From Eledone cirrhosa (lineage: Eukaryota): DNA of 64,000 bases. Under the pieces are notes generated by a model. That model searched no databases. It saw nothing but the letters and a program-made list of their open reading frames with translations, and was not told the origin of the DNA. The stretch spans positions 72,044,001-72,108,000 of the forward strand of contig OZ024746.1 of assembly GCA_964016885.1 (NCBI GenBank). Direction: 5' to 3'. Positions 4,380-58,608 of this stretch are shown here, one piece after another (the stretch's first letter is position 1; each line of letters starts with the position of its first letter). Both the position numbers and the translations under genes were made by a program.

Positions 4380-6050
4380 GAGAGCCACAGCACCCATACA
4401 AGAGCCTCGATTGGAGGAGGAGTAAACATTACTTTGGATCTTGTGAGGCTGATGGGCAGTCCAAAAGCCCGACAAGACCAAGAAAAATGATTCATTATGA
4501 CTTGCATGTCTTTTTGATTGTGTACAAAATCAGCTGCCAAGTTATTGCTTAACAGATTACCAACCTAGATCTCTCCCTCAGTTCTCCCAGATACTCTCTG
4601 GGAGAACCGACGGACAGATCTAGGTTGGAAATCTGTTAAGCAATAACCTTACCAGCGGCTTCAAGCACACTGATACCACGATGGTTGTTGTATATTGATT
4701 TGGAAGTAATAACTTCTCCATATCGCAAAAGTTAAATTGGTGTCCCATCTAGACCAGGGGCCTTCTTGATATGTATTCCCATAATTGCTGATTCTACCTC
4801 AGCCAGTGTAGATAAATTCATCATGTCTGTAGTTATTTCTGTTTTGACGAGACTGTTGATTACATCTAAATCGAAATTTTCCTGTCATCGCTTCATAATA
4901 CCATCAACATCTTTGCACAAAATATCACCAACTCCTAGACAAGACATGCAACTTGCTTGATGAATTGGTCCCAAACCTTGATTGATGAGGCTGTAGAGTG
5001 ATCTTGAGTCTTTTTCTATTATATGCACTTTGAGTTTCTGAGGCAATGCTAGCCCACCACATATTTTTCATTCTTTTCAGTCCCTCGGTGCAATGTTGCT
5101 TTCAATTGTTCCATCCCACATCCAATCAAACTTCACTTCAGCCCTTTCATAAGCCTTCACTGTCTAATTTTGAAAAGTCAGTACATTTAGGAACCCTAAT
5201 CCTACCACTCTTAATTTTCGCCTGACTCGTAGCTTTAATTTACCCCATAAAAAAGAAATGATCCGTCCCACACTCTGCTTTTCACATTACTTTTACTTGC
5301 AAATCTTGTTTTCCAGTGATGATGCTATCTAATATATGGTCATGTTTCTATCTTGGATGTGTCCATTTGAATATCTTTTTTGTTGGAAAAATATATTGCA
5401 AATCACCAATCTAACTTTTTTACAAAGTTGAGGATGTAACCCATTGTCAACCATTTTTCCCTTGACCAAAATATTATGACCCCGACCTACACAAACATTG
5501 AGGTCACCATGCAAAAGGATCTTTTCTTCCCTAGGTTATAGTCGATGCATATACATAAATGATAGTCATAAAACCAGTCAGTGGAACGTGTAGACGCATT
5601 ATTCTTTCGTTGATATCCTGCGGGCGCTCAATTTAGGCAAACACAACGCCATTTTCTCTCTTCTCGCCTTTCAGTCTCCCTATCCAAAATAAGGTATACC
5701 CTGCTACAGCTTCTGTCAAATTATCTTGCTCATTCAATCTTGTCTCTGCAAGTGCAACACTATCTAAGATTTCACGTGCAAGCTATCTTACAATAATCGC
5801 ATTCCTTCGCTCTGGATTCGCAAAACCATCACGGTCCAGAAGTGTCCGTACATTCCAGGTAGTCACCTTAATTCTCACTCGATTACTCAAACGTCTTAAA
5901 TTTCTGTTATTTCTCCTGCATAAACAAACAGCCACCAAATGCAGGATGCTGGCCAGCCTCCAAAAGTAAGCAGGTGATGTTTAGCTCACCTTTCCTAGAT
6001 TCTTCGCAGAAACTGGGTGAGCAACACTCTTAGATAGGACTTGTCAGACA
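4380..6050 (-). mobile_element. Degraded RTE-clade LINE (APE and RT fragments)
   Basis: Minus-strand motifs TWNVRTLLD..ERR, ALAETRL..GYTLFW, GDLN, and DMQVIMNHFS..FGL.IS..SKVM. Confidence 0.75.
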
Positions 6051-8956: not shown

Positions 8957-9089
8957 GTGGAACACTGGAAGGTAATATCCGTAGTGGTAGAGCACTCAGT
9001 CCAAGGGACGAGTTAGGTAGAAGTGGTTACACAACAGTTAGTTCACCATACCGAGAACAATTGTTTCACCTTCGCAGATCTTCACCATC

Positions 9090-9129
9090 CCGAGCTGAAG
9101 ATCCGCGAAGGTGAAACAATTGTTCTCGG
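9090..9129 (+). ncRNA. Minimal type I hammerhead ribozyme (family A) in fold-back element 8952-9162
   Basis: CCGAG-CUGAAGA-uCCgcgaaGGu-GAAA-C AAUU G-UU^-CUCGG: 5-bp stem I, palindromic stem III, weak stem II. Confidence 0.7.
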
Positions 9130-9157
9130 TATGGTGAACTAACTGTTGTGTAACCAC

Positions 9158-9227
<70 letters not shown>

Positions 9228-9229
<2 letters not shown>

Positions 9230-9760
9230 CGAGGGAAAAGTGGTAAGGAACCAGGTGGACCATAACGCACCAAAGTACTCAATACTTCGGGTAGTAGAGT
9301 GGGTAATAGGAGTAAGTAAGACCCCGACGGCTGAGCTCAAGCCGTTTCGACGGCTAATTCTGTACTGAATGAAAAATCAGTTCTGGTATTTAAATAGCCG
9401 AACTTGTCAAGGGGCAATTCCATATATGGTCAAAGAGATATGTATTTCTTCAGCCTATTTCCTAGTAATCAGATTCCGCTTATATTTCTTTTCTCTCTCA
9501 GTACCCTTTACAGTTTTACATTTTCATCGTTCTACTTACCGTATTGACCTCCTCCCCCTCCCCCTCCCCTGCCTCCTCTTTGACCTCACACCCAGCTGTA
9601 GCTGGCACCACCAACGCATGAATGGGTCTACTCCTCTTTGACCATATATGGAATTGCCCCTTGACAAGTTCGGCTATTTAAATACCAGAACTGATTTTTC
9701 ATTCAGTACAGAATTAGCCGTCGAAACGGCTTGAGCTCAGCCGTCGGGGTCTTACTTACT

Positions 9761-9765
<5 letters not shown>
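9228..9765. mobile_element. Penelope-like terminal (pLTR) fold-back element, family B, between (TA)n tracts
   Basis: About 130-bp inverted arms (9306-9437 and 9634-9765). Related copies at 17855, 18622, 21359, 22560, 24385, 27381, 40318, 40390, 41330 and 45128. Confidence 0.7.
9657..9749 (+). ncRNA. Type I hammerhead ribozyme (family B, U3-A8 core); inverted copy at 9322-9414
   Basis: CCCC-UUGACAA-g..CGGCUA..UAGCCG.c-GAAA-CGGCU ugagcuc AGCCG-UC^-GGGG. Confidence 0.75.
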
Positions 9766-12708: not shown

Positions 12709-15700
12709 TGTGTACCTGTTGGCTGCCAAAGAAGTTCCCAGACCTGACGGCCTGATAAAAGTAATCGCTTCCGTTATCCTTATGCCTCACATACCATCGT
12801 ACTCCAACGACGAATTCAAAGCTAAAACCGACGTGTTCGCTGCTGGCCTCAGGTATTTGATCCAGCTGAGGATGCACGGGGTGGAATTTAAGGAAAATGA
12901 TGAAACAGAAAGTGAGAAAGTTTCAGAAAATGGTTCCGCTTCGAAATCCAAAAGAAAAGATTCTAAATCGTCGAAATCTAATAAAACTCAGACTGACAAA
13001 CCAACTGAATCCCGCAAGAATTCACGAAGAGAATCCCGAGCGGAAACCCCTTCATATAGGAGCATTCGATCCGACGCAGAATCTCACTCAGATTCGCAGC
13101 CGAAATCCTATACTACAACCCCCTCAGATTCGCGCCAGAAATCCTATACTACAACCCCCTCAGATTCGCGCCACAAATCCTTTGCTGAAACCCCCTCAGA
13201 TTCGCACAAGAAATCCCGTGCTGCATCCCGCTCAGATCCACTCAAGAAATCCCCTGATAAAACCCACTCAGATTCGGCCAAGCAACCCCGCCAGAAACCC
13301 CCCACAGTTCCTCGTAAGCGACTCGACTCAAAATCTCGCTCAGCTTCACGTAATCGATCCGGCGCGGAATCCGGCTCAGTTTCGCGCAATAGATTCCCCA
13401 CGAATTCAACGAGTGAATCTCCCCCGGTTTCAGGCATTGAATCTCGTGCGGGTTCCAGTACGCAATTCCGTGCTGAAACCCGCCCAGGAACGAGAAAGCA
13501 ATCCCGTGCTGAAACCCGCTCAGATACGGGCAAGCAATCCCGTGCTGAAACCCGCTCAGATACGCGCAAGAAATCTCGTGATGGAACACGCTCAGATTCG
13601 CGAGTGGATGACGACACGCAATCCCGACCTGTTTCAAAAAAATCCCACCAGAAATCCTCCACAGATTCTCGTAAATCAATCGACACAAAATCTCGCCCAT
13701 CTTCGCGTAAACCTGGCGCGGAATCCCGCTCAGTTTCGCGCAATGAATCCTTCACGATTCCACCGAGTGAATCTCTCCCGCCGGTTTCAGGCAATGAATC
13801 CCTTGAGGAATACGGTGCTCAAACCCACTCAGATAGACAGAAGCAATATCGCGATGGAACCCCCTCAGTTTCGCGCGATGAATCGATTTCACCGGGCAAT
13901 AAATACCGTGCGGAATCCACTGCGGAATTCCCTGGAGATTCCCCTGAGTATTATCGTGAGGGATATAAAGAGAAACTCAAAGCGAGACCCAAAGACGGAT
14001 CCAAAGCGGGATCCAAAGCGGGAACCAAAGATGGATCCAAAGTGGGATCCAAAACGAGCTCAGGTGCGGGTTCCAAAGAGAAACCCAAAGCGGGATCCAA
14101 AGAGAAATCTAAAGCGGGATCCAAAGAGAGACCTAAAGCGGGATCCAAAGAGAGATCTAGAGCGGGATCCAAAGAGAGACCTAAAGCGGGATCCAAAGAG
14201 AAATCTAGAGCGGGATCCAAAGAGAGACCTAAAGCGGAATCCAAAGAGAGATCTAGAGCGGGATCCAAAGGGAGACCTAAAGCGGGATCCAAAGAGAGAC
14301 CCAAAGCGGGATCCAAAGAGAGATCTAGAGCGGGATCCAAAGAGAGACCTAAAGCGGGATCCAAAGAGAAATCTAGAGCGGGATCCAAAGAGACACCTAA
14401 AGCGGGATCCAAAGAGAGATCTAGAGCGGGATCCAAAGAGAGACCTAGAGCGGGATCCAAAGAGAGATCTAGAGCCGGATCCAAAGAGAGACCTAAAGCG
14501 AAATCCAAAGAGAGATCTAGAGCCGGATCCAAAGAGAAATCTAGAGCGGGATCCAAAGAGAGACCTAGAGCCGGATCCAAAGAGAAATCTAGAGCGGGAT
14601 CCAAAGAGAGACCTAAAGCGGGATCCAAAGAGAGATCTAGAGCGGGATCCAAAGGGAGACCTAAAGCGGGATCCAAAGAGAGACCTAAAGCGGGATCTAA
14701 AGAGAGATCTAGAGCTGGATCCAAAGAGAGACCTAAAGCGGGATCCAAAGAGAGTTCTAGAGCCGGATCCAAAGAGAGATCTAGAGCCGGATCCAAAGAG
14801 AGACCTAAAGCGGGATCCAAAGAGACACCTAAAGCGGGATCCAAAGAGAGATCTAGAGCCGGATCCAAAGAGAGACCTAAAGCGGGATCCAAAGAGAGAT
14901 CTAGAGCCGGATCCAAAGAGAAAACTAGAGCGGGATCCAAAGAGAGATCTAAAGCGGGATCCAAAGAGACACCTAAAGCGGGATCCAAAGAGAAAACTAG
15001 AGCGGGATCCAAAGAGAGATCTAAAGCGGGATCCAAAGAGGGATCTAAAGCTGGATCCAAAGAGAGATCTAGAGCCGGATCTAAAGATAGATCTAAAGCG
15101 GGATCAAAAGAGAGATCTAGAGCGGGATCTAAAGAGAGACCTAAAGCGGGATCCAAAGAGAAATCTAGAGCGGGATCCAAAGAGAGACCTAAAGCGGGAT
15201 CCAAAGAGAGATCTAGAGCGGGATCCAAAGAGAGATCTAAAGCGGGATCCAAAGAGAGACCTAAAGCGGGATCCAAAGAGACACCTAAAGCGGGATCCAA
15301 AGAGAGATCTAGAGCGGGATCCAAAGAGAGATCTAAAGCGGGATCCAAAGAGAGACCTAAAGCGGGATCCAAAGAGAGATCTAAAGCGGGATCCAAAGAG
15401 ACACCTAAAGCGGGATCCAAAGAGAGGTCTAGAGCCGGATCCAAAGAGAGACCTAAAGCGGGATCCAAAGAGAGATCTAGAGCCGGATCCAAAGAGAAAA
15501 CTAGAGCGGGATCCAAAGAGAGATCTAAAGCTGGATCCAAAGGGAGATCTAGAGCCGGATCCAAAGAGAAACCTAAAGCGGGATCCAAAGAGGAATCACG
15601 TGCTGGATCCAAAAGGGCATCTCAGGCGGGATCCAAAGAGAGATCTAAAGCTGGATCCAAAGAGAGATCTAGAGCCGGATCCAAAGAGAAATCTAAAGCG

Positions 15701-16237
15701 GGATCCAAAGAGGAATCACGTGCGCGACCCAAAAGGTCATCTCGTTCGGGATCCAAAGAGGGATCCCAAGAGGGATCTAAAGTGGGATCCACTGGAGGAT
15801 CACGTGTGGAATCCAAAAAGGGATCTCGTGCGGAATCCATAGATGGATCCCGCGCAGGATCGTACTCGGATTCTGGCAGTGTATACGACTATATTTTTGA
15901 CAGTGAATCCCCACTTGTTTCTGACACTGAAAACGCATCGATTTCTACCACTGAATCCCTAACGATTTCTGCCAGTGAATCCCCGAGCGAATCCGACACT
16001 AGTTCTCGCAGTGGATCCCAAGACCAATCCCGCACTGGTTCTCGTAGTAGATTCCAACGTGATTCTCACAATGGAACCTCCAAAGAAACATTAGCGGATA
16101 TGCCATCAGACGCCGGCAAACGTTCCCACCCTCTTTCACGCCCAAAAGGCCGCGATGTAGCCCACACGAAACCCATCACAGAAACTGTCAAGGGACCACG
16201 GAGTAAATCTCGCCCTGATAAGAAAAGGGAAAAGTAA
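12709..16237 (+). CDS. Terminal exon A of the plus-strand BCR/ABR-like gene: RhoGAP C-terminal helices plus a very long basic low-complexity tail
   Basis: Strong acceptor (T-rich ..catAG at 12707-12708), phase 2, joins exon 4068-4170 as HLAN-VYLLAAKE. Open for 3.5 kb. N-terminal 60 aa homologous to exons 25491 and 30658. Confidence 0.75.
13980..15860 (+). repeat. Coding 24-bp tandem repeat (GCGGGATCCAAAGAGAGATCTAGA-like; AGSKERSR/AGSKERPK), roughly 75-80 units
   Basis: Periodicity visible directly in DNA and protein. Confidence 0.95.
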
Positions 16238-17535: not shown

Positions 17536-17677
17536 ACCAAAAGTTTAACAAGGTTCATTGATTAATCAATGAATAAAGTTTTACAAGAGATTAGAAGCAC
17601 TCAACAGTGAGGTTTTCTGGAGTTATTAGTATTACTTCAAAATATTAATAAATATAGACATTCATGTGATCAAATAT

Positions 17678-17734
17678 TTTTTATTATACATATTTCAGAG
17701 GTACTGAGTTATTTCATCAGTACGTCCTCATCAG
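17678..17734 (-). ncRNA. Hammerhead core with stem I broken by the fold-back junction
   Basis: CUGAUGA-ggacGUACUGA..UCAGUACcucu-GAAA-UAUGUA-UA, inside inverted arms 17630-17715 and 17735-17820. Confidence 0.55.
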
Positions 17735-17815
17735 GAAATAACTCAGTACCTCTGAAATATGTATAATAAAATATATTTGATCACATGAATGTGTATATTT
17801 ATTAATATTTTGAAG

Positions 17816-17857
<42 letters not shown>

Positions 17858-18583: not shown

Positions 18584-18624
<41 letters not shown>

Positions 18625-18716
18625 CGAATGAATTGTGGTAAGGAACCAGATGGACCATAATGCACCTGAGAACTCAATACTTAGGGTAGTAGAGTGGGTA
18701 ATAGGAAAAAGTAAGA

Positions 18717-18810
18717 CCCCGACGGCAGAGCTCAAGCCGTTTCGACGGCTATTTCTGGACTAAATTAGAATTTTTAGCCTGGTAAATAAATAGCCGAACT
18801 TTTCAAGGGG
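18717..18810 (-). ncRNA. Family B hammerhead ribozyme copy (core UUGAAAA)
   Basis: Same architecture as 9657-9749 with a diverged stem II interior. Confidence 0.7.
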
Positions 18811-19171
18811 GTACTTCCTTATATGGGAAGATTGTAGTTGTCAAGAAGATTGGTCAAAATTTGTTGTAAACAGAAATAAGTCTTATCATGGCATTTGGTG
18901 GAAGGTGGGGGTGGCTGAACTTGCCTGTAGAACAATGAGGGAGTGGGTGGAGCCGGTCAAGCGTTGAAAGTGATATCTATACAGCAGATTCTAAGGATAG
19001 TGTATGAAAGTTGAAAAATTGTTCTGGAGCAAATGGAGGAGGGTTGTTCTAGAATAGGTAAGTCAAATGAGAGTAGGAGACAATATAAAAATAATAGAAA
19101 GAAATATTTAAAAAATATATAAATAGCCGTCGAAACGGCTTGAGCTCTGCCGTCGGGGTCTTACTTTTTCC

Positions 19172-21307: not shown

Positions 21308-21360
<53 letters not shown>

Positions 21361-21550
21361 AAAATATTTGACCCCGGCGGCAGAGCTCAAGTCGTTTCGA
21401 CGGCTATTTCTGGAGTCCAGAAATAGCCGTCGAAACGGCTTGAGCTCTGCCGTAGGGGTCAAACATTTTCCTATTACCCACTCTACTACCCTAAGTATTG
21501 AGTACTCTGGTGCGTTATGGTCCATCTGGTTCCTTACCACACCTCCTTCG

Positions 21551-21611
<61 letters not shown>

Positions 21612-22891: not shown

Positions 22892-23471
22892 GCAAATATA
22901 TGTATATATATATATATATTGGTAAATGGTTTAATTAGGAATAAAAGAGTATTAGTGATTGTATGGGTTAGTATTCAGTTGTGGTTTTAAGTTTTTAAGT
23001 TTTTACCGGTTGCGCATTTCTAAATGCTTTTAACATAAAAACAGGTAGAATTCCCAAAACTAATCAGATCAGAGCAAACAATACGGACACTCTATCTCAA
23101 AATTATTTTTGAAAAGCATTTAGAAATGCGCAACCGGTAAAAATTTAAAAACTTAAAACCACAACTGAATACTAACCCATACAATCACTAATACTCTTTT
23201 ATTCCTAATTAAACCATTTTTCAACTGTGAACAATTTGTCAGCATTTTCTATTCCGTTTACCAATATATAATAACTTGTGTGTTACACCTCTATTCTTTT
23301 AACTATATATATATATATATAGCGGCGATGAATTAGTTTTGCGAGGTTTTTTATATGAAATCGTGTGTCGAAACAGATATTGTTATATTTGGGGAGGGTC
23401 ATATTTGCGTAATATTGCCAGAATTAATAACAGAACACACTCACTGTTTGGTTGGTTTTCGCTTCTCGCTG

Positions 23472-24662: not shown

Positions 24663-24860
24663 TACGATATTAAATAAATGGAAACTATATTTATAAAACC
24701 ATATTTATTTCATTATATATATTTCAGGGATATCATATTAAAAATATGGTATGCCTTCATCATGATGAAGGCATACCATATTTTTAATATGATATCCCTG
24801 AAATATATATAATGAAATAAATATGGTTTTATAAATATAGTTTCCATTTATTTAATATCG

Positions 24861-25490: not shown

Positions 25491-26937
25491 TTTGTACCTG
25501 TTGTCTGACAAGAAAATACCAAAACCTGATTGCATTCTAAAATTATTCGCTTCCATCCTTCTTCTACCCCTCATACACCCGTATACCCATACGGAATTCA
25601 GAAGCAAAGCTGAAATGTTTGCCTCAATACTCGAATATTTCGTATTTTTGAGAATGAATGATGTAAGCTTTAGCTCTATAGAGCAACCCACTAAACCTGA
25701 ACCAGAGCAACCCACTGAACCTGAGGAACTCACTGAACCTGAATCAGAGGACCCCAATGAACCTGAACCACCAGCCAAGATTTCCGCGCGCACCGCGAAA
25801 TCTGAGGAGAACTTAGAACCTAAAACCACAGACAAAAGAAAAAAGAGAGAATCACAAACTAAAAAGGTGTCAAACAAGAAACATAACTCAGATGGTCCGT
25901 TGAGGAAGAGAGATGACAACGAAATGGCTGCACCAAAGACTGGGAATGGGAGTAGAAGTGTAAACAGAAGTCCGAATAAGGGGGGTGGAAAGTCAAAGGC
26001 AACTCCAAGTAAGGACAGTGGAAAGTCAAAGACAACTCCGAGTAAGGACAGTGGAAAGTCAAAGACACCTCCGAGTAAGGATAGTGGAAAGTCAAGGACA
26101 AGTCCGAGTAAGGATAGTGGAAAGCCAAAGACAGGTCCGAGTAAAGACAGTGGAAAGTCAAGGACAAGTCCGAGTAAGGATAGGGGAAAGCCAGGGACAA
26201 GTCCGAGTAAGGATAGTGGAAAGCCAAGGACAGGTCCGAGTAAAGACAGTGGAAAGTCAGGGACAAGTCCGAGTAAGGATAGTGGAAAGCCAAGGACAAG
26301 TCCGAGTAAAGACAATGGAAAGTCAGGGACAAGTCCGAGTAAGGATAGTGGAAAGCAAAAGAGAAGTTCAAGTAAGGAGAGTGGAAAGCAAAAGAGAAGT
26401 TCAAGTAAGGAGAGTCAAAGCTCTAAGGCTAGTACAAGTAAGGAGAGTGTAAAGCGAAAGAAAAGTCCGAGTAAGGATAGTGAAAAGCTAACGAGAAGTC
26501 TGAGTAAGGAGAGTGGAAACCTAAAGAAAAGTCCTAGTAAGGAGAGTGGAAAGCAAATGAGAAGTCAGAGTAAAGATAGTGGAAACCTAAAGAAAAGTCC
26601 GAGTAAGGATAGTGGAATGCTAACGAGAAGTCTGAGTAAAGAGAGTGGAAAGCTAAAGAAAAGTCCGAGTAAGGAGAGTGGAAAGCTAAAGAAAAGTCCG
26701 AGTAAGGAGAGTGGAAAGCTAAAGACAAGTTCGAGTAAGGAGAGTGGAAAGCTAAAGACAAGTCCGAGTAAGGATAGTGGAAAGCTAAAGAGAAGTCTGA
26801 GTAAGGAGAGTGGAACGCTAAAGAGAAGTCAGAGTAGGGACAGTGGAAAGCTAAATAGTTCAAGTAAGGAGGGTAAAATCCGTGAAAAGGAGTCAATAAA
26901 TCAAGATGAAGAAGAGACGAACGAGGCAGAAAATTAG
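25491..26937 (+). CDS. Terminal exon B (duplicate of exon A) with an 11-aa SKDSGK..SP repeat tail
   Basis: Acceptor ..tttcacAG at 25489-25490, same phase 2. LYLLSDKKIPKPDCILKLFASILLLP aligns with VYLLAAKEVPRPDGLIKVIASVILMP. The upstream intron is also similar to 12640-12708. Confidence 0.75.
25977..26860 (+). repeat. Coding 33-bp tandem repeat (SKDSGKSRTSP / SKESGKLKKSP)
   Basis: Visible 11-aa periodicity. Confidence 0.9.
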
Positions 26938-27170: not shown

Positions 27171-27543
27171 GAGTGCTTTGCTAACTCATTCATATTGTAG
27201 GTCGACTTTCCTTGTCCACAGCCAAAGCGATTTTACTAAGCCCCCACATGTATATATATATATAGATATTTATGCGCATATGTTTATATACATATTACAT
27301 ATGTATATATAGAGAGATAGATATATGTGTGTGTGTCTATGAATTTATATATATATACATATATATATATATTTATATATAGGAAAAGAGTCACGACCCC
27401 AGGGGTCCTGACTCTTTTCCTATTACCCACTGTACTACCCTAAGTATCGAGTACTCTGGTGCGTTATGGTCCACCTGGTATCTTACCACACTTTATTTCT
27501 TATATTTATACATACATACATACATGTATGTATGTATGTATTC

Positions 27544-30689: not shown

Positions 30690-33330
30690 TTCTTTATTTG
30701 CCACAAGGGCGTACATGAAATGGTACATATCAAGACGTGACGGCGGGGGTTTTACATAAAAATCATATAACTTTAACATTAATAAATAAACTATATATAA
30801 AATAAAATAACAATCGTGTTTTAGACCCCGTTGATAGAACAATCCTCAACACCAGGAACACGTTTTGTAGGTGTTCCCGTCTTCCTTCTGTTTGTCTTCC
30901 TCAATCTACAGGTTTATATACAGAGAAGGCCCATTCACTCGGGCCATTTTCGTCACATTCACCCGCCTTTCAACGAATTTACTGGGGTGTAGCACCTGTC
31001 TCTCCACTGTCACCTTCCTTCTGAAGTGGTATTTAAAGAAGGAGAGGAAGGTGTTTGCCCACAATCCTTTTAACCTCGTCCGCCATATTACCTCTTTTGC
31101 CATAGCCACCAGACAGAGGAAAACTACCTCTCCTTCATTCTTAAATGAAGGCGGCTGAGTGATCCTCACAATGGACTCAGCTGACAACTGGATGCGTCCC
31201 ACACGTGACAGTAACTGTTCGACATAATTCCACAGGTCGGTCACCCCTGGGCACTGAACAATTGCGTGCAGAACGGTTTCGATGTCCTGCTCGCATCTTG
31301 GACAGGTCCTTTTGGCAAGATCCCTGCCAGGGCGCCCGTGCCTGTAGATTTTGTCTCGAACTGGTAGAGCTCCTTGGTAGCACTGCCAGGCCAGAAGTTA
31401 TCCATAGGTCCTGGACGGAAAGTCCTCCCGAACAGACTGGCAAGTTCGTCCTCTTCGATGCCTAGAGTCTACCCGAGAACGTCATAGCAATTATCCTTTA
31501 CTAATGCCCCATAGAATATCGACGTGGAGTCTCCGCTGATTGCCGTTTCCGCTTGGTAGAGGGCTGTGAGCGCCTGAACGCACTGGAGGTGCCAGGCGCC
31601 CATTTTCGGTCTTCGCTTGACCCAGGACTGCAGCTCTGTTAGTGAGACTAGTTGTGGAAAAGCTCGTCACACAAACGACAACCACACCGGTTCACCGGTC
31701 AAGAAAACCTGCAGATGGCATAGCTTCAACGCGTGTTTGCGCATAATCAACCACGGCATCCCTAGCCCTCCGTTAGAAGGGTGTTAGCAACAGGTGGATC
31801 TCCTCACCAACGGAGCCTGTTTCTTCCAAAGGAACTTGAACAGAAGACGTTCCATTTTGGTGAGGTGATCGTGGGGACAAAGCATGATTGTCAAGTGGTA
31901 GTAGATGACGGGCGCTATGTAAGTGTTCGCCAATTCCGCTCGACCTTTTAAGGAGAGTTTGCACCCAGCCCACTCCTGGGCGAGTGCAAACACCTTCGCC
32001 GTGACCTCCTTCCAGTTTTTGTCCACCTGGAGGTCTGGACCAAACCAGACCCCGAGCAATATCCCAGTCCTTCCGTCTAGCGTCCAACGACGCTGTTGGA
32101 CGGCAAGGGTTTGCCTCTCCATGTGCCGAGTTGCAAACCGACAGACTTGTTCGGGTTTAGTCTTGCTCCTGTCAATGTTCGGTATTCCTGTAATAAGTTG
32201 CCGATTACCCCGATTTCCAAGGTTTTCGACACCATTACGGTCACGTCGTCGGCGTAGTCTGACGCTGCGTTTCGCAGTCCTGGTTCAATCGGGATGTCCT
32301 GCAATAGCTCCAGCTTCCGCAGTAGTGGCTCGAGAATCAACACATACAGAATGGAGGAGAGATGACATCCTTGACGGATGGAACGCATGATTTGGAATGG
32401 ATCCATTAGGTAGCCATTCACCTTGACTGCCGAGCATGGCAGCGATCCAGCCTCTGAAGATGAGACCGAAACCGGCCGCCTTGAGAACCGCTTCCAAGTA
32501 TTGATGGTCGACCTTATCATATGCCTTAGATTGATATAATTGATCAAAGCTCCACCGAAGCCAAGTTTACACCCTGCCCTCTCTATGATGTATCGCATGA
32601 GGTGAGGTTGTCGTGTATGGACCTGGTCGGGATTGTATACACGTTTGCGCTTCCGCCAGTTTCTTGATGACGAGCGCCAGCCTCGTTGCTAACACTTTAG
32701 CCAAATTCTTCAATTCTGTGTTGAGCAGAGTTATGGGCCTGAAGTTACTTATGTTATCGCCTTTGTTCTCGTCATCCTGATCGTAGTCTGCTTACAGAAC
32801 TGGGAATTCTCCCGTTCTGCTGCAAATTGCAGTGTAGACCGCTTCGAGGACGCCAGAGAACAAGTCTGACATGCCTATGTAAGACTCATAGGGTAGACCA
32901 TCTACACCGTGTCATTTGCGTTTCCCACAGCGGCCTAAGGCGTCTTCTATTTCGCCCGCTGTGATCGACCTTTCGCAGCTCTCCGCATCTGTGTTCGAGA
33001 GTCGCGGTAGGCCGTCGAGGTAGGAACTGAAGTCCATCACCCCGCTCGATGCACACTCTGCCCGTAGAGTTGTGCAAAGTGCTGCTGGAAGGCCGTGCAA
33101 ATCTGCTTGGATTGAAGTAATATGAGTCTGTCTTGATTTTCCAAAGACCGAATTATGGATTTGTTGCCACTTTTCGCCTCTGCCACTCGAGCCCAGCTAA
33201 CAGCTTTGGCACCCTCGTTCCTCAGAGCACGTGTTCTACTTCTGACAATACAACCTTCATGTTTCACGTTGAAGAGCTGGACTAGTGCCGTTCTCGCCGC
33301 TAGCACGTCAGCTGTACTGCCATTTCAGAT
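30690..33330 (-). mobile_element. 5'-truncated, degraded Tx1/L1-clade LINE (RT and zf-RVT)
   Basis: Motifs NFRPITLLN, SIRQGC.LS.ILY, YADDVT, GVWFGPD and LSLKGRAE; 3' AATAAA end at about 30694. Confidence 0.9.
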
Positions 33331-41203: not shown

Positions 41204-41331
<128 letters not shown>

Positions 41332-41527
41332 CGAAGGAAATGTGGTAAGGAACCAGATGGACCATAACGCACCAAAGTACTCAATACTTAGGGTAGTAGA
41401 GTGAGTAATAGGAACGAGTAGGACCCCGACGGCTGAGCTCAAGCCGTTTAGCCGTCGAAACGGCTTGAGCTCAGCCGTCGGAGTCCTACTCGTTCCTATA
41501 TATATATATATATATAAACGGAAAAAA

Positions 41528-41663: not shown

Positions 41664-41735
<72 letters not shown>

Positions 41736-41929
41736 CATGCACACATATATATATGTACGTATGGATTCACCGAACATTTATTATAATGCTCGGTGTGTTT
41801 GTAAACAAATATCCCGAATTAAGCCGTACAGTGTCTAGCAACCATCGTTGCTCATTTGTTCAACACTGACAAAGGAACGCTGTACTAGTTTCAAGCTTAT
41901 TAGCGTTCAACCATCTGGCAGGAAGGTAT

Positions 41930-41972
41930 ACGTTGCTGACGATAGCTAATAAGCTTGAAACTAGTACAGCGT
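41930..41972 (+). ncRNA. Minimal type I hammerhead ribozyme in fold-back 41621-42185
   Basis: ACGUUG-CUGACGA-uAGCUaauaAGCUu-GAAA-CUAG-UA^-CAGCGU. Confidence 0.8.
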
Positions 41973-42176
41973 TCCTTTGTCAGTGTTGAACAAATGAGCA
42001 ACGATGGTTGCTAGACACTGTACGGCTTAATTCGGGATGTTTGTTTACAAACACACCGAGCATTATAATAAATGTTCGGTGAATCCATACGTACATATAT
42101 ATATGTGTGCATGTATGTATATATATATATATATATACATACTACTATACGTCTGTATACATATATGTATGTACGT

Positions 42177-43262: not shown

Positions 43263-43331
<69 letters not shown>

Positions 43332-43788
43332 TAAAATAACAGATTAAAGTTTAAGCAAAGAATCGCTGCTTTCACCCTTAACGGGATCTTCTGAAACTAA
43401 CAAAGTCAATCTGTAAACGCAGAAGGGGATATTTCAAAAAACGTTGCAACCGGAGGAAGACAGGAAGACGATACTTTGGTTCGTGGAAACGTTCCCTTCA
43501 CAAAACATACAGGTAATATATACTTACCTATGCAAATAAGTAATAGTATAAACATAACATATACTTACTCTTACTCCGGTTGCAACGTTTTTTGAAATAT
43601 CCACTTCTGCGTTTACAGATTGACTTTGTTAGTTTCAGAAGATCCCGTTAAGGGTGAAAGCAGCGATTCTTTGCTTAAACTTTAATCTGTTATTTTAATA
43701 AATATTTGCTCTACGGTTCTTATATATTTGATATATATTTATCCTTATCGAGCCCTCTTTGGATTTTAGTCTTCAAATTTATTATTAT

Positions 43789-44364: not shown

Positions 44365-44412
<48 letters not shown>

Positions 44413-44675
44413 TGTATATATACTGTATTTTGCAATACACCGTATGCTCAATTAAAAGCATTTCGAAGACCTTACGCTATTGTTTTAGAGTAGTGACAAT
44501 CTCACTTACTTTAAATTTTCAGCAAACAGGGGAGATAAAGCTGACAGAACTCTGTTTCATACTTCTTGGTACTTATCAAAGCTAAGTACTCCACCTGTTT
44601 GCTGAAAATCATGAATGTTTGATTCTTATAGATTCCTGATTATTACTAGAATTCTATAAGAATCAAACATTCATG

Positions 44676-44770
44676 ATTTTCAGCAAACAGGTGGAGTACT
44701 TAGCTTTGATAAGTACCAAAAAGTACGAAACAGAGTTCTGTCAGCTTTATCTCCCCTGTTTGCTGAAAAT
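44676..44770 (+). ncRNA. Full-size type I hammerhead ribozyme, U3-A8 core, extended stem I; inverted copy core at 44539-44583
   Basis: AGCU-UUGAUAA-GUAC caaaaa GUAC-GAAA-CAG aguu CUG-UC^-AGCU. Stem I continues past an internal loop into an approximately 20-bp helix (44676-44696 with 44751-44770). Confidence 0.85.
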
Positions 44771-45088
44771 TTAAAGTAAGTGAGACTGTCACTACTCTAA
44801 AACAATAGCGTAAGGTCTTCGAAATGCTTTTAATTAAGCATACAGTGTATTGCAAAATACACTATATATACATTCATATATTTATCGCTATTTCAGACCA
44901 CCAATTCTAATTTTCAATTTCTGCTTGACCAACAACCGCTCTGTATAATCAGTTCCTGATTATTACTAGAATTCTATAAGAATCAAACATTCATGATTTT
45001 CAGCAAACAGGTGGAGTACTTAGCTTTGATAAATACCAAAAAGCACTATATATACATTCATATTATCGCTATTTCAGAGCACCAATTC

Positions 45089-45784
<696 letters not shown>

Positions 45785-46307
45785 TCGTTTGGAAGCCTCG
45801 ACAATGCAAATGGGTAAATCTCCGGGTAACAAGGTCCGGTGGTGGAGAGAGAGATGTAAGTGGGCGTACGTTGAGATGCGTGGTGTGTATAAGATGTGTG
45901 AGATGTGTAGAATGGAGGGAAGAGTAAAAGGATAAAAATAAAAATAACAACACAAGAGAGAGTTACCTTTGGAGAAATTTAATAGTCCCTATATATTTCG
46001 GATTCACATCCATCAACTGGGGTTTTTTTCCGGGGTGGGGGAAAAGGTTGTCTGTCGGACAAGTCCGGAAGGCGTCTTTCGCTGTTTGCTGTTGTTATTT
46101 TTATTTTTATCCTTTTACTCTTCCCTCCATTCTACACATCTCACACATCTTATACACACCACGCATCTCAACGTACACCCACTTACATCTCTCTCTCCAC
46201 CACCGGACCTTGTTACCCGGAGATTTACCCATTTGCATTGTCGAGGCTTCCAAACGACTTATAGATATTTACTTATTGTTCCACAATGCTTCAAGCAAAC
46301 TTCAATA

Positions 46308-50791: not shown

Positions 50792-50829
<38 letters not shown>

Positions 50830-51181
50830 GAAAGACGTAAAATAAGAAAATTTAAAAAAAAATTAAAAATTAACTTACTTATTAAAATAGTCACTCCAAC
50901 TAATTAGTTTCTGTAATGGGATAAAGATAGTTACGTAATATAACCATCGAGAATTCATTACGTCATCAGGGAGTCTATTTTCAGCTAAGTCTCCAGGCAA
51001 TGCGCGGACACTAGGGACTCATATAAAAATAATAATAATTCGGTGCCATTTGACCAGAGGCAGCTAACTTTTTCAGTGCATGGAATCTAGTCCCCGCTAG
51101 CTGTTCCTTCCACCGAATTATTATTATTTTTATACGAGTCCCTAGTGTCCGCGTATTGCCTGGAGACTTAGCTGAGAATAG

Positions 51182-51263
51182 ACTCCCTGATGACGTAATG
51201 AACTCTCGATGGTTATATTACGTAACTATCTTTATCCCATTACAGAAACTAATTAGTTGGAGT
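51182..51263 (+). ncRNA. Type I hammerhead ribozyme with long stem II; inverted copy at 50893-50974
   Basis: ACUCC-CUGAUGA-cGUAAUG..CAUUACa-GAAA-CUAAUUAG-UU^-GGAGU. Confidence 0.8.
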
Positions 51264-51444
51264 GAAAATTTTAGTAAGTAAGTTAATTTTTAATTTTTTT
51301 TTAAATTTTCTTATTTTACGTCTTTCATATTATTGTTCTGCATCCTCCTGCATTGAACCACCTAGGTACTATGACATAACTTATGTATTTGCTAGCATTA
51401 GTGTACATCTGTACGCATATGTTGGTAGATATACTAATTCTCTG

Positions 51445-57693: not shown

Positions 57694-58021
57694 CGAGCTG
57701 TGTTGCGGGGGTAACTACAGTTAAAGAAAGTACTCAATATGTTGATGGACTATACGCATCTTTTAATTGTTTTTTTTTATTTTATTTTCTACAGGACTAA
57801 AACTGTTTCATTCGTATGAAATCATCGAATAAAACAGTTCTAGTCCTTGTAGAAGTCAGTTCTATATAAAATAATATACAACTAAAACAAAACAAAACAA
57901 AAAAAATGAGTTTTTTTTGTTTTGTTTTGTTTTTTAAACAAAAAGAAAAAAACACGGGTGAAAGTATAAGGAAAAGACATTGAAAATGCAACTGGAGTCT
58001 ATAAAAGAATATTTATTCATT

Positions 58022-58061
58022 TACTTTACCAATTTCACAGTTCTTATTCTTTTCAAAAGTA
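58022..58061 (-). ncRNA. Degenerate U3-A8 hammerhead; inverted copy at 58146-58184
   Basis: Consensus of the two arms: UACUU-UUGAAAA-GCA uaagaac UGU-GAAA-CCGG-UA^-AAGUA. Confidence 0.55.
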
Positions 58062-58608
58062 AAATTGAGATGGAGGGTTTGTGTTTCTGTCGCGGTTTGT
58101 CTCGCATCAGATACGAGACAAACTACAAACCCTCCATCTCAATTCTACTTTTGAAAAGCATAAGAACTGTGGAACCGGTAAAGGAAACAAATAAATATTC
58201 TTAAAAGTCTCCAGTTGCGTTTTCGATTTCTTTTCCTTATATATACATACAGATGTATACGCAGAGAAAGGTAGCGAACAGTAGAGAAAATAGTGCTGAT
58301 TGTCACTGTTCATGTCCTGAGAAAAGCATTATCAATTTAAAAACCTTGCAAAGATATTTAATGGTGTTTGTGCCCCTATAGCATCATGTGTATGCCAATT
58401 GATTGTAAAATGTGTGTATTATCAAATTTGACTCAGGTGTCAGGTTGACACTCAGCATGGTTTAGGAAAGACGCAGAATTCAAAGGAAGTCCCAAATAAT
58501 AATAATAATGATAATAATAATTAACTGGCTTACCAATGCACACTGTGAATTTATTTGTCCTAGGTGTCAGGAAGACACTTGGCATATATCTCGGAAACAA
58601 TGATAGAA

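Follow-up and report, generated by a model that had tools for sequence, protein, structure and literature searches.

An inverted insertion at 27379..27503 of the window, the 64,000-nucleotide stretch of Eledone cirrhosa DNA analyzed here, raises the question of why both of its arms should stop at the very nucleotide where a hammerhead ribozyme of the same element is predicted to cut its own RNA. The insertion is flanked on either side by (TA)n-type, TA-rich repeat, the left flank (27251..27378) being the microsatellite target. It begins with an inverted, tail-less arm, ATAGGAAAAGAGTCACGACCCC, on the reverse strand (27379..27400), which by sequence and family alignment covers element positions +22 to +1, counted from the predicted cut. 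A single extra A on the forward strand (27401) separates it from the sense arm, GGGGTCCTGACTCTTTTCCTAT (27402..27423, forward strand), which by the same evidence starts at +1 and leads into a 'tail' of about 80 nt that was delimited by family alignment (27424..27503, forward strand, end approximate). The GGGG opening the sense arm at 27402 corresponds to the 3' strand of hammerhead stem I and to the predicted 3' cleavage product's 5' end. The arms pair at 21 of 22 positions, with a single mismatch (27394/27408), and their fold has a z-score of -7.5, with none of 200 shuffles being equally good. Together with the arm coordinates, this bears out the initial annotation's claim that both arms end exactly at the predicted cleavage site. 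Short-read contigs from four runs were compared with the locus; two of the runs, from one sample, yielded two 55-letter pieces that span the junction, which is under the bridging bar of 31 letters per side. The same A junction recurs at three further loci with unrelated flanks (L002, L003 and L016), and the window's own subfamily contributes 14 near-site matches at 8 loci.

Judged from its sequence, this is an inverted insertion into (TA)n of a Penelope-like retroelement (PLE) of the Hydra clade. We aligned 14 pieces of the family from the 64-kb window, and one 24-base tail motif occurs 27,597 times in the 3.0 Gb genome. One copy (L042, 3270-5402, reverse strand) carries a 710 aa open frame containing the motifs YRDD and VIY..YIG, along with several Hydra-clade features, namely DKTGN (DKT), the linker CNCPDRSIC (CxCx5C), CNLC (CxxC) and CKH (CxH), and no CCHH; the (TA)n targeting typical of that clade is likewise seen in this family. 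The copy has RWR where the Hydra clade has RWK. As a Pfam search with this frame gave 0 families at E 0.1, the assignment to the endonuclease-bearing (EN+) PLEs rests on these motifs: a single frame predicted to combine a reverse transcriptase with a C-terminal GIY-YIG endonuclease, linked to the terminal sequence. A MITE or another DNA transposon was considered and rejected, given that there are no fixed terminal inverted repeats, that the junction ranges from +8 to beyond -300 and that one end is tailed.

The hammerhead and tail lie at the 3' end of the L042 copy and also 5' of the open frame in long copies, directly so in 20-22 of 30. In partial-tandem copies the tail continues into the 5' region of the reverse transcriptase-endonuclease frame; such an upstream tail, running on into the frame's 5' region, is present in 22 of the 30 long copies, most with a hammerhead ahead of it. 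Since hammerhead and tail precede the frame, the 3' cleavage product would form the coding unit's 5' end. The insertion ends at +20 (CCTAT) and about +100 (CGTTAT) lie near this 5' end, and both finish in TAT, like the target. Two of 22 frame-bearing copies (L256 and L262) start exactly at the predicted cut.

The reference intact hammerhead of the family, identified by stem pairing and covariation, lies at 9655..9751 on the forward strand. It comprises stem I (CCCC/GGGG), the core UUGACAA (a U3-A8 variant), a long stem II, GAAA, stem III and GUC^, with the site GUC^GGGG at 9743-9749 and the predicted cut between 9745 and 9746. For the family as a whole it is of type I with the core UUGANAA, a G10.1-C11.1 pair and a stem III of 5-6 bp. 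Among 31 full cores, 24 have U3-A8 and seven the mismatched C3-A8, while N7 is unconstrained (15 G, 6 C, 6 T and 4 A) and the neighboring positions are fixed. An alignment of 12 copies has 90% of its cells paired and four pairs changed on both sides, three of them in stem II and one at the 3-8 pair in a degraded row; the shuffle control for this covariation does not preserve the relatedness of the copies. With three stems around (C/U)UGAN(G/A)A, GAAA and an NUH site, the motif has the makeup of a type I hammerhead, and cleavage is predicted. The unconstrained fold of 9655-9760 has its minimum at -27.7 kcal/mol and is not the hammerhead, versus -27.2 for the constrained hammerhead; the centroid contains stems I-III. 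An Rfam scan of the window returned no hammerhead among the best 150 of its 231 matches, only microsatellite-driven miRNA noise; the core is a variant one and stem II is long. Another copy that has both a tail and a full hammerhead, here with the core UUGAAAA, occupies 18624..18826 on the reverse strand.

Insertions of this family ordinarily take the fold-back form, as do those of PLEs generally, for which inverted 5'-truncated copies and one-sided tails are known (Craig et al., 2021, PMC8557442). In the window, the typical form is represented by a longer inverted copy at 9230..9762 in which both arms read through the site, and further inverted copies have their junctions about 40 nt (21359..21551, the modal class) and about 20-30 nt (41331..41496) upstream of it. 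To characterize this form we took an unbiased sample, the first 80 stretches around tail-motif matches on one contig (L031-L110), the anchor lying wholly downstream of the site; the initial DNA search was left out of the breakpoint counts, its query biasing the matches. An inverted tail-less arm abuts 68 of the 105 sense arms in this sample. The break falls at -31 to -50 in 62 of the 105 sense arms and in 53 of the 68 inverted arms, while five sense arms start, and no inverted arm ends, within -2 to +3. Overall, the arms extend past the hammerhead site in about 97% of cases. The -31 to -50 mode shared by both arms falls within or next to the 3' strand of hammerhead stem II, and structure, a protein footprint or a second RNA end are candidate causes. 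A general symmetry of the arms was rejected: their ends are at most two bases apart in 18 of 68 junctions (by eye, hairpin alignment artefacts excluded), about what chance gives from so narrow a mode.

The inverted form is pervasive in the window, with insertions of unrelated families by (TA)n at 4541-4647, 22924-23219, 43328-43701, 44409-44876, 45782-46260, 50828-51328 and 57965-58241. Fold-backs at 9020-9160 and 41732-42117 belong to two other (TA)n-inserting families with predicted minimal type I hammerheads (CUGAAGA..GAAA..GUU^ and CUGACGA..GAAA..GUA^, respectively), and those of a further family at 17633-17817 and 24665-24860, the latter a perfect 196-bp palindrome, have their junction at a CUGAUGA core. 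The window also holds long GA-rich tandem arrays at 13978-15851 and 25968-26855 (24/72-bp and 33-bp units), resembling low-complexity coding exons, and two diverged copies (69%) of one 690-bp sequence in opposite orientation (628-1301 and 30921-31578).

Against this background, ends at the predicted cut form a distinct minority class. Of the 10,307 tail-bearing arms in the TTACT(G/T)G subfamily, 352 have their start at +1/-1, and control patterns for neighboring positions gave 28 starts at -3/-4 and 49 at +5/+6; the resulting excesses, about 11x and 6.5x, are to be read as rough values, as pattern efficiencies differ between test and controls. The initial annotation had allowed that its single case might be due to chance and had proposed a search for a breakpoint peak at GUC^GGGG; that search was positive, and the genome-wide excess of ends there speaks against chance. 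For most classes, the counts were made by eye on the first 100 matches listed. Nine among the first 100 of the 352 matches were false positives from slippage in runs of five Gs, and 71 were site-starting sense arms with an abutting inverted arm. In 57 of these 71 the inverted arm also ends at the site, compared with 0 of 68 in the unbiased sample (Fisher p 5e-26). Seven of the other partners end at +5 to +11 and seven read through the site, four of them with GG microhomology; the remaining matches were 15 solo or unclear cases, four short tandem repeats at one place and one inverted tail. Among 30 site-starting loci that we fetched, the partner ends at the site in 16, at +5 to +11 in one and reads through in two, the rest being five slippage cases, five solo arms, no tandem and one inverted tail. 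Among the 49 arms starting at +5/+6, about 20 have an inverted partner ending at +1/+2. At G000:C2:332357183-332361056 and at L194 there are short direct repeats repeatedly restarting at GGGG, as if the polymerase had re-jumped from the +1 end several times.

Loci in which both arms reach the site and are separated by 0-2 bases number at least 247. The 250 matches to the blunt-type junction correspond to about 117 blunt and about 15 CpG-decayed loci, estimates scaled from 94 and 6 among the first 100 matches listed; the blunt class, CCCCGGGG, could equally be a -1/-1 join through a two-base CG microhomology. One-base inserts are A/T at 62 loci and G/C at 18. The 35 two-base inserts comprise AA/TT (10), AT (9), AG/CT (5), CA/TG (4), GG/CC (2), CG (2), TA (1), AC/GT (1) and GA/TC, the templated pair, in only one case. 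Longer inserts often repeat nearby element sequence, e.g. AGTA or AGTAAG. The excess of AT over TA (9 to 1, p 0.02) fits the addition of one A to each cDNA 3' end. CpG decay was rejected as the source of the A: such decay, present in about 6 of 53 blunt loci, predicts about one A/T locus versus the 62 observed. The A at 27401 is hence very likely a run-off addition, a non-templated base added to the 3' end of the inverted-arm cDNA. An intramolecular snap-back of a single strand is unlikely, because a hairpin needs a loop longer than 0-2 bases and because AT is commoner than TA between the arms. Thus, of the earlier proposal that a self-cleaved RNA was copied to its 5' end and then either folded back or primed from both sides, the copying is supported and the two-sided priming fits the data, whereas the folding back is unlikely.

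Neither symmetry nor short inserts are exclusive to the site, as the control junctions indicate. Those at -5 to -15 (202 matches) are nearly all GAGCTC microhomology joins in the first 100, without A/T inserts. Those at +3 to +13 (149 matches) are spread over many positions, with a symmetric class at +13 (GAAC/GTTC) making up about 22 and short A/T inserts about 12 of the first 100 matches listed (by eye). In the unbiased sample, 15 of 68 junctions have 1-4 extra bases, alignment-end effects included. Of two other families of the window, both with minimal hammerheads, neither shows such a peak: one has 9,350 arms and 10 near-site loci, a single one of which is site/site, and the other has three near-site loci, none clean, in an uncounted total of arms; these two control families may also differ in processivity. 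Near-site matches per arm in the searches of the present family were 582/38,704 and 162/20,978. By subfamily, the rate is roughly 2% for TTACT, 0.8% for CTACTCG, about half of whose full cores have the C3-A8 mismatch expected to weaken cleavage, and 0.5% for ATACT, with a shorter stem III; a minimal-hammerhead family has about 0.02%. The subfamily rates of site-ended insertions may track ribozyme strength.

We consider it quite probable that both arms end at the predicted cut because two DNA copies were each extended to, and off, the 5' end of a self-cleaved RNA. The endonuclease would nick both strands of (TA)n, and reverse transcription would begin at two sites inside the RNA (about +20 and +100), each of which ends in TAT, so that priming from both target strands yields a tailed sense arm and a tail-less inverted arm; the arm at 27379-27400 would then be cDNA primed at the inner start site (CCTAT). 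In about 97% of events the RNA would be uncleaved or re-circularized, with both copies passing the site and mostly stopping at -31 to -50. In the remaining few percent it would be linear and cleaved, with both copies ending at +1; such run-off ends would often gain an A before being joined head to head. The sign of cleavage is an indirect one, the genomic peak at +1, from which we infer it. In keeping with this scheme, a PLE protein was seen in vitro to cut both strands and to extend them from a pair of internal start sites bracketing the tail; cleavage of the RNA was nevertheless unnecessary there, and no Anolis RNA-seq reads ended at the site, according to the sections covered of that study (Frangieh et al., 2024, PMC11167929). 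Also weighing against run-off are the CG microhomology that would equally explain the blunt class, the similar symmetric class at +13, the short inserts at unbiased and +3 to +13 junctions, the roughly 7 of 71 partners that read through and the mismatch in 7 of 31 cores.

One rival reading has the reverse transcriptase stall where an uncleaved hammerhead is folded, at its three-way junction or stem III, with cleavage unneeded: the main stop mode in or beside stem II indicates that structure may stop the enzyme, and the blunt class fits -1 stops joined by CG. Such stalling is nonetheless rather unlikely, as at stem III it predicts -1/-2 stops, hence templated inserts, while G/C (18) and GA/TC (1) are outnumbered by A/T (62) and AA/TT/AT/TA (20), and independent stalls do not yield co-termination in 57 of 71 pairs. 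The shared fate of both arms and the same +1 stop would be equally expected if the cleaved RNA were re-ligated to a circle whose odd junction linkage (2'-5' or 2'-phosphate) sometimes blocks the enzyme, or if the RNA were cut during copying; the roughly 97% of arms that cross the site would agree with this too. There is no direct sign of such a linkage, and RtcB-type ligation leaves a normal bond, making this version, which would still imply cleavage, distinctly improbable. RtcB-type ligation has been reported for animal retrozymes (PMC7229834), and circular intermediates have been proposed for PLEs (Cervera and de la Peña, 2014, PMC4209133).

A fixed 5' end that explains co-termination could also be a transcription start site at +1, which would have to match the NUH site to the exact base. 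Moreover, a cap would tend to leave an extra G/C, as for L1, and here G/C inserts are the minor class (18 versus 62); so, despite the promoter described in the PLE pLTR (PMC6765202), we regard a start site as very improbable. Truncation by chance, an originally longer palindrome that later lost its center, or an assembly artefact is hardly credible. Symmetric microhomology joins do occur at GAGCTC. Long inverted repeats are also unstable, but deletion would not insert A/T at one fixed position in loci with unrelated flanks. Chance and artefact are disfavored by the breakpoint peak, the neighbor-position counts and the insert classes, and short-read contigs span the window junction, albeit under the bridging bar.

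If run-off from a cleaved RNA is accepted, site-ended insertions likely record self-cutting RNA at work in the germ line. The peak at the cut and the co-ending arms would then offer evidence, from the genome alone, for germ-line cleavage and two-sided priming, bearing on whether PLE hammerheads cut in vivo and on how inverted PLE insertions arise. The count of breakpoints can be repeated in any assembled animal genome. We are evenly divided on the broader proposition that inverted PLE insertions constitute a fossil ribozyme assay, in which the site-ended share measures in vivo cleavage per family, both arms are copied from one RNA and the majority of insertions derive from RNA that is uncleaved or circular.

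This type of element, its inverted form and the shaping of 5' junctions by a ribozyme cut site (in R2) are already known; our literature search, with subscription papers and supplements outside it, found no earlier report of PLE breakpoints at the hammerhead site. In L1 twin priming, a single RNA with two primers yields an inverted 5' part that is attached through microhomology, and the arms copy different, non-overlapping parts of the RNA, whereas here both copy the same 5' stretch. The Hydra-clade PLEs, in the sections covered of their description (Craig et al., 2021, PMC8557442), share with the present family the C-terminal GIY-YIG, DKT, CxCx5C, CxxC, CxH, hammerhead, (TA)n targeting, inverted 5'-truncated copy and one-ended tail; they differ in RWK rather than RWR and in a tail of 30-40 rather than about 80 nt, and the present family has tens of thousands of copies. 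Those sections call hammerhead function 'still unclear' and do not mention breakpoints at the ribozyme site. The PLE hammerheads of Cervera and de la Peña (2014, PMC4209133), for which the covered parts note an 'absence of in vivo evidence' for cutting, likewise have a U3-A8 covariant core, G10.1-C11.1 with an unpaired stem II base, and motif pairs on opposite strands 100-700 bp apart; unlike those minimal, dimer-dependent motifs, the present one has a stem III of 5-6 bp and could work as a monomer. As with PAc Poseidon in vitro, both target strands appear to have been cut and extended from start sites that bracket the tail; there, by the covered sections (Frangieh et al., 2024, PMC11167929), most template is unprocessed RNA, cleavage is dispensable and no reads end at the site, whereas one genomic class of the present family ends precisely at that position. 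A parallel for the junction itself is the HDV-like ribozyme of R2, whose cut site sets the genomic 5' junction, with non-templated run-off bases; by the sections covered, R2 is a LINE with one cDNA and with cleavage as the rule, while here a hammerhead would set the junction of two cDNAs joined head to head, in a minority class (Eickbush et al., 2013, PMC3774820).
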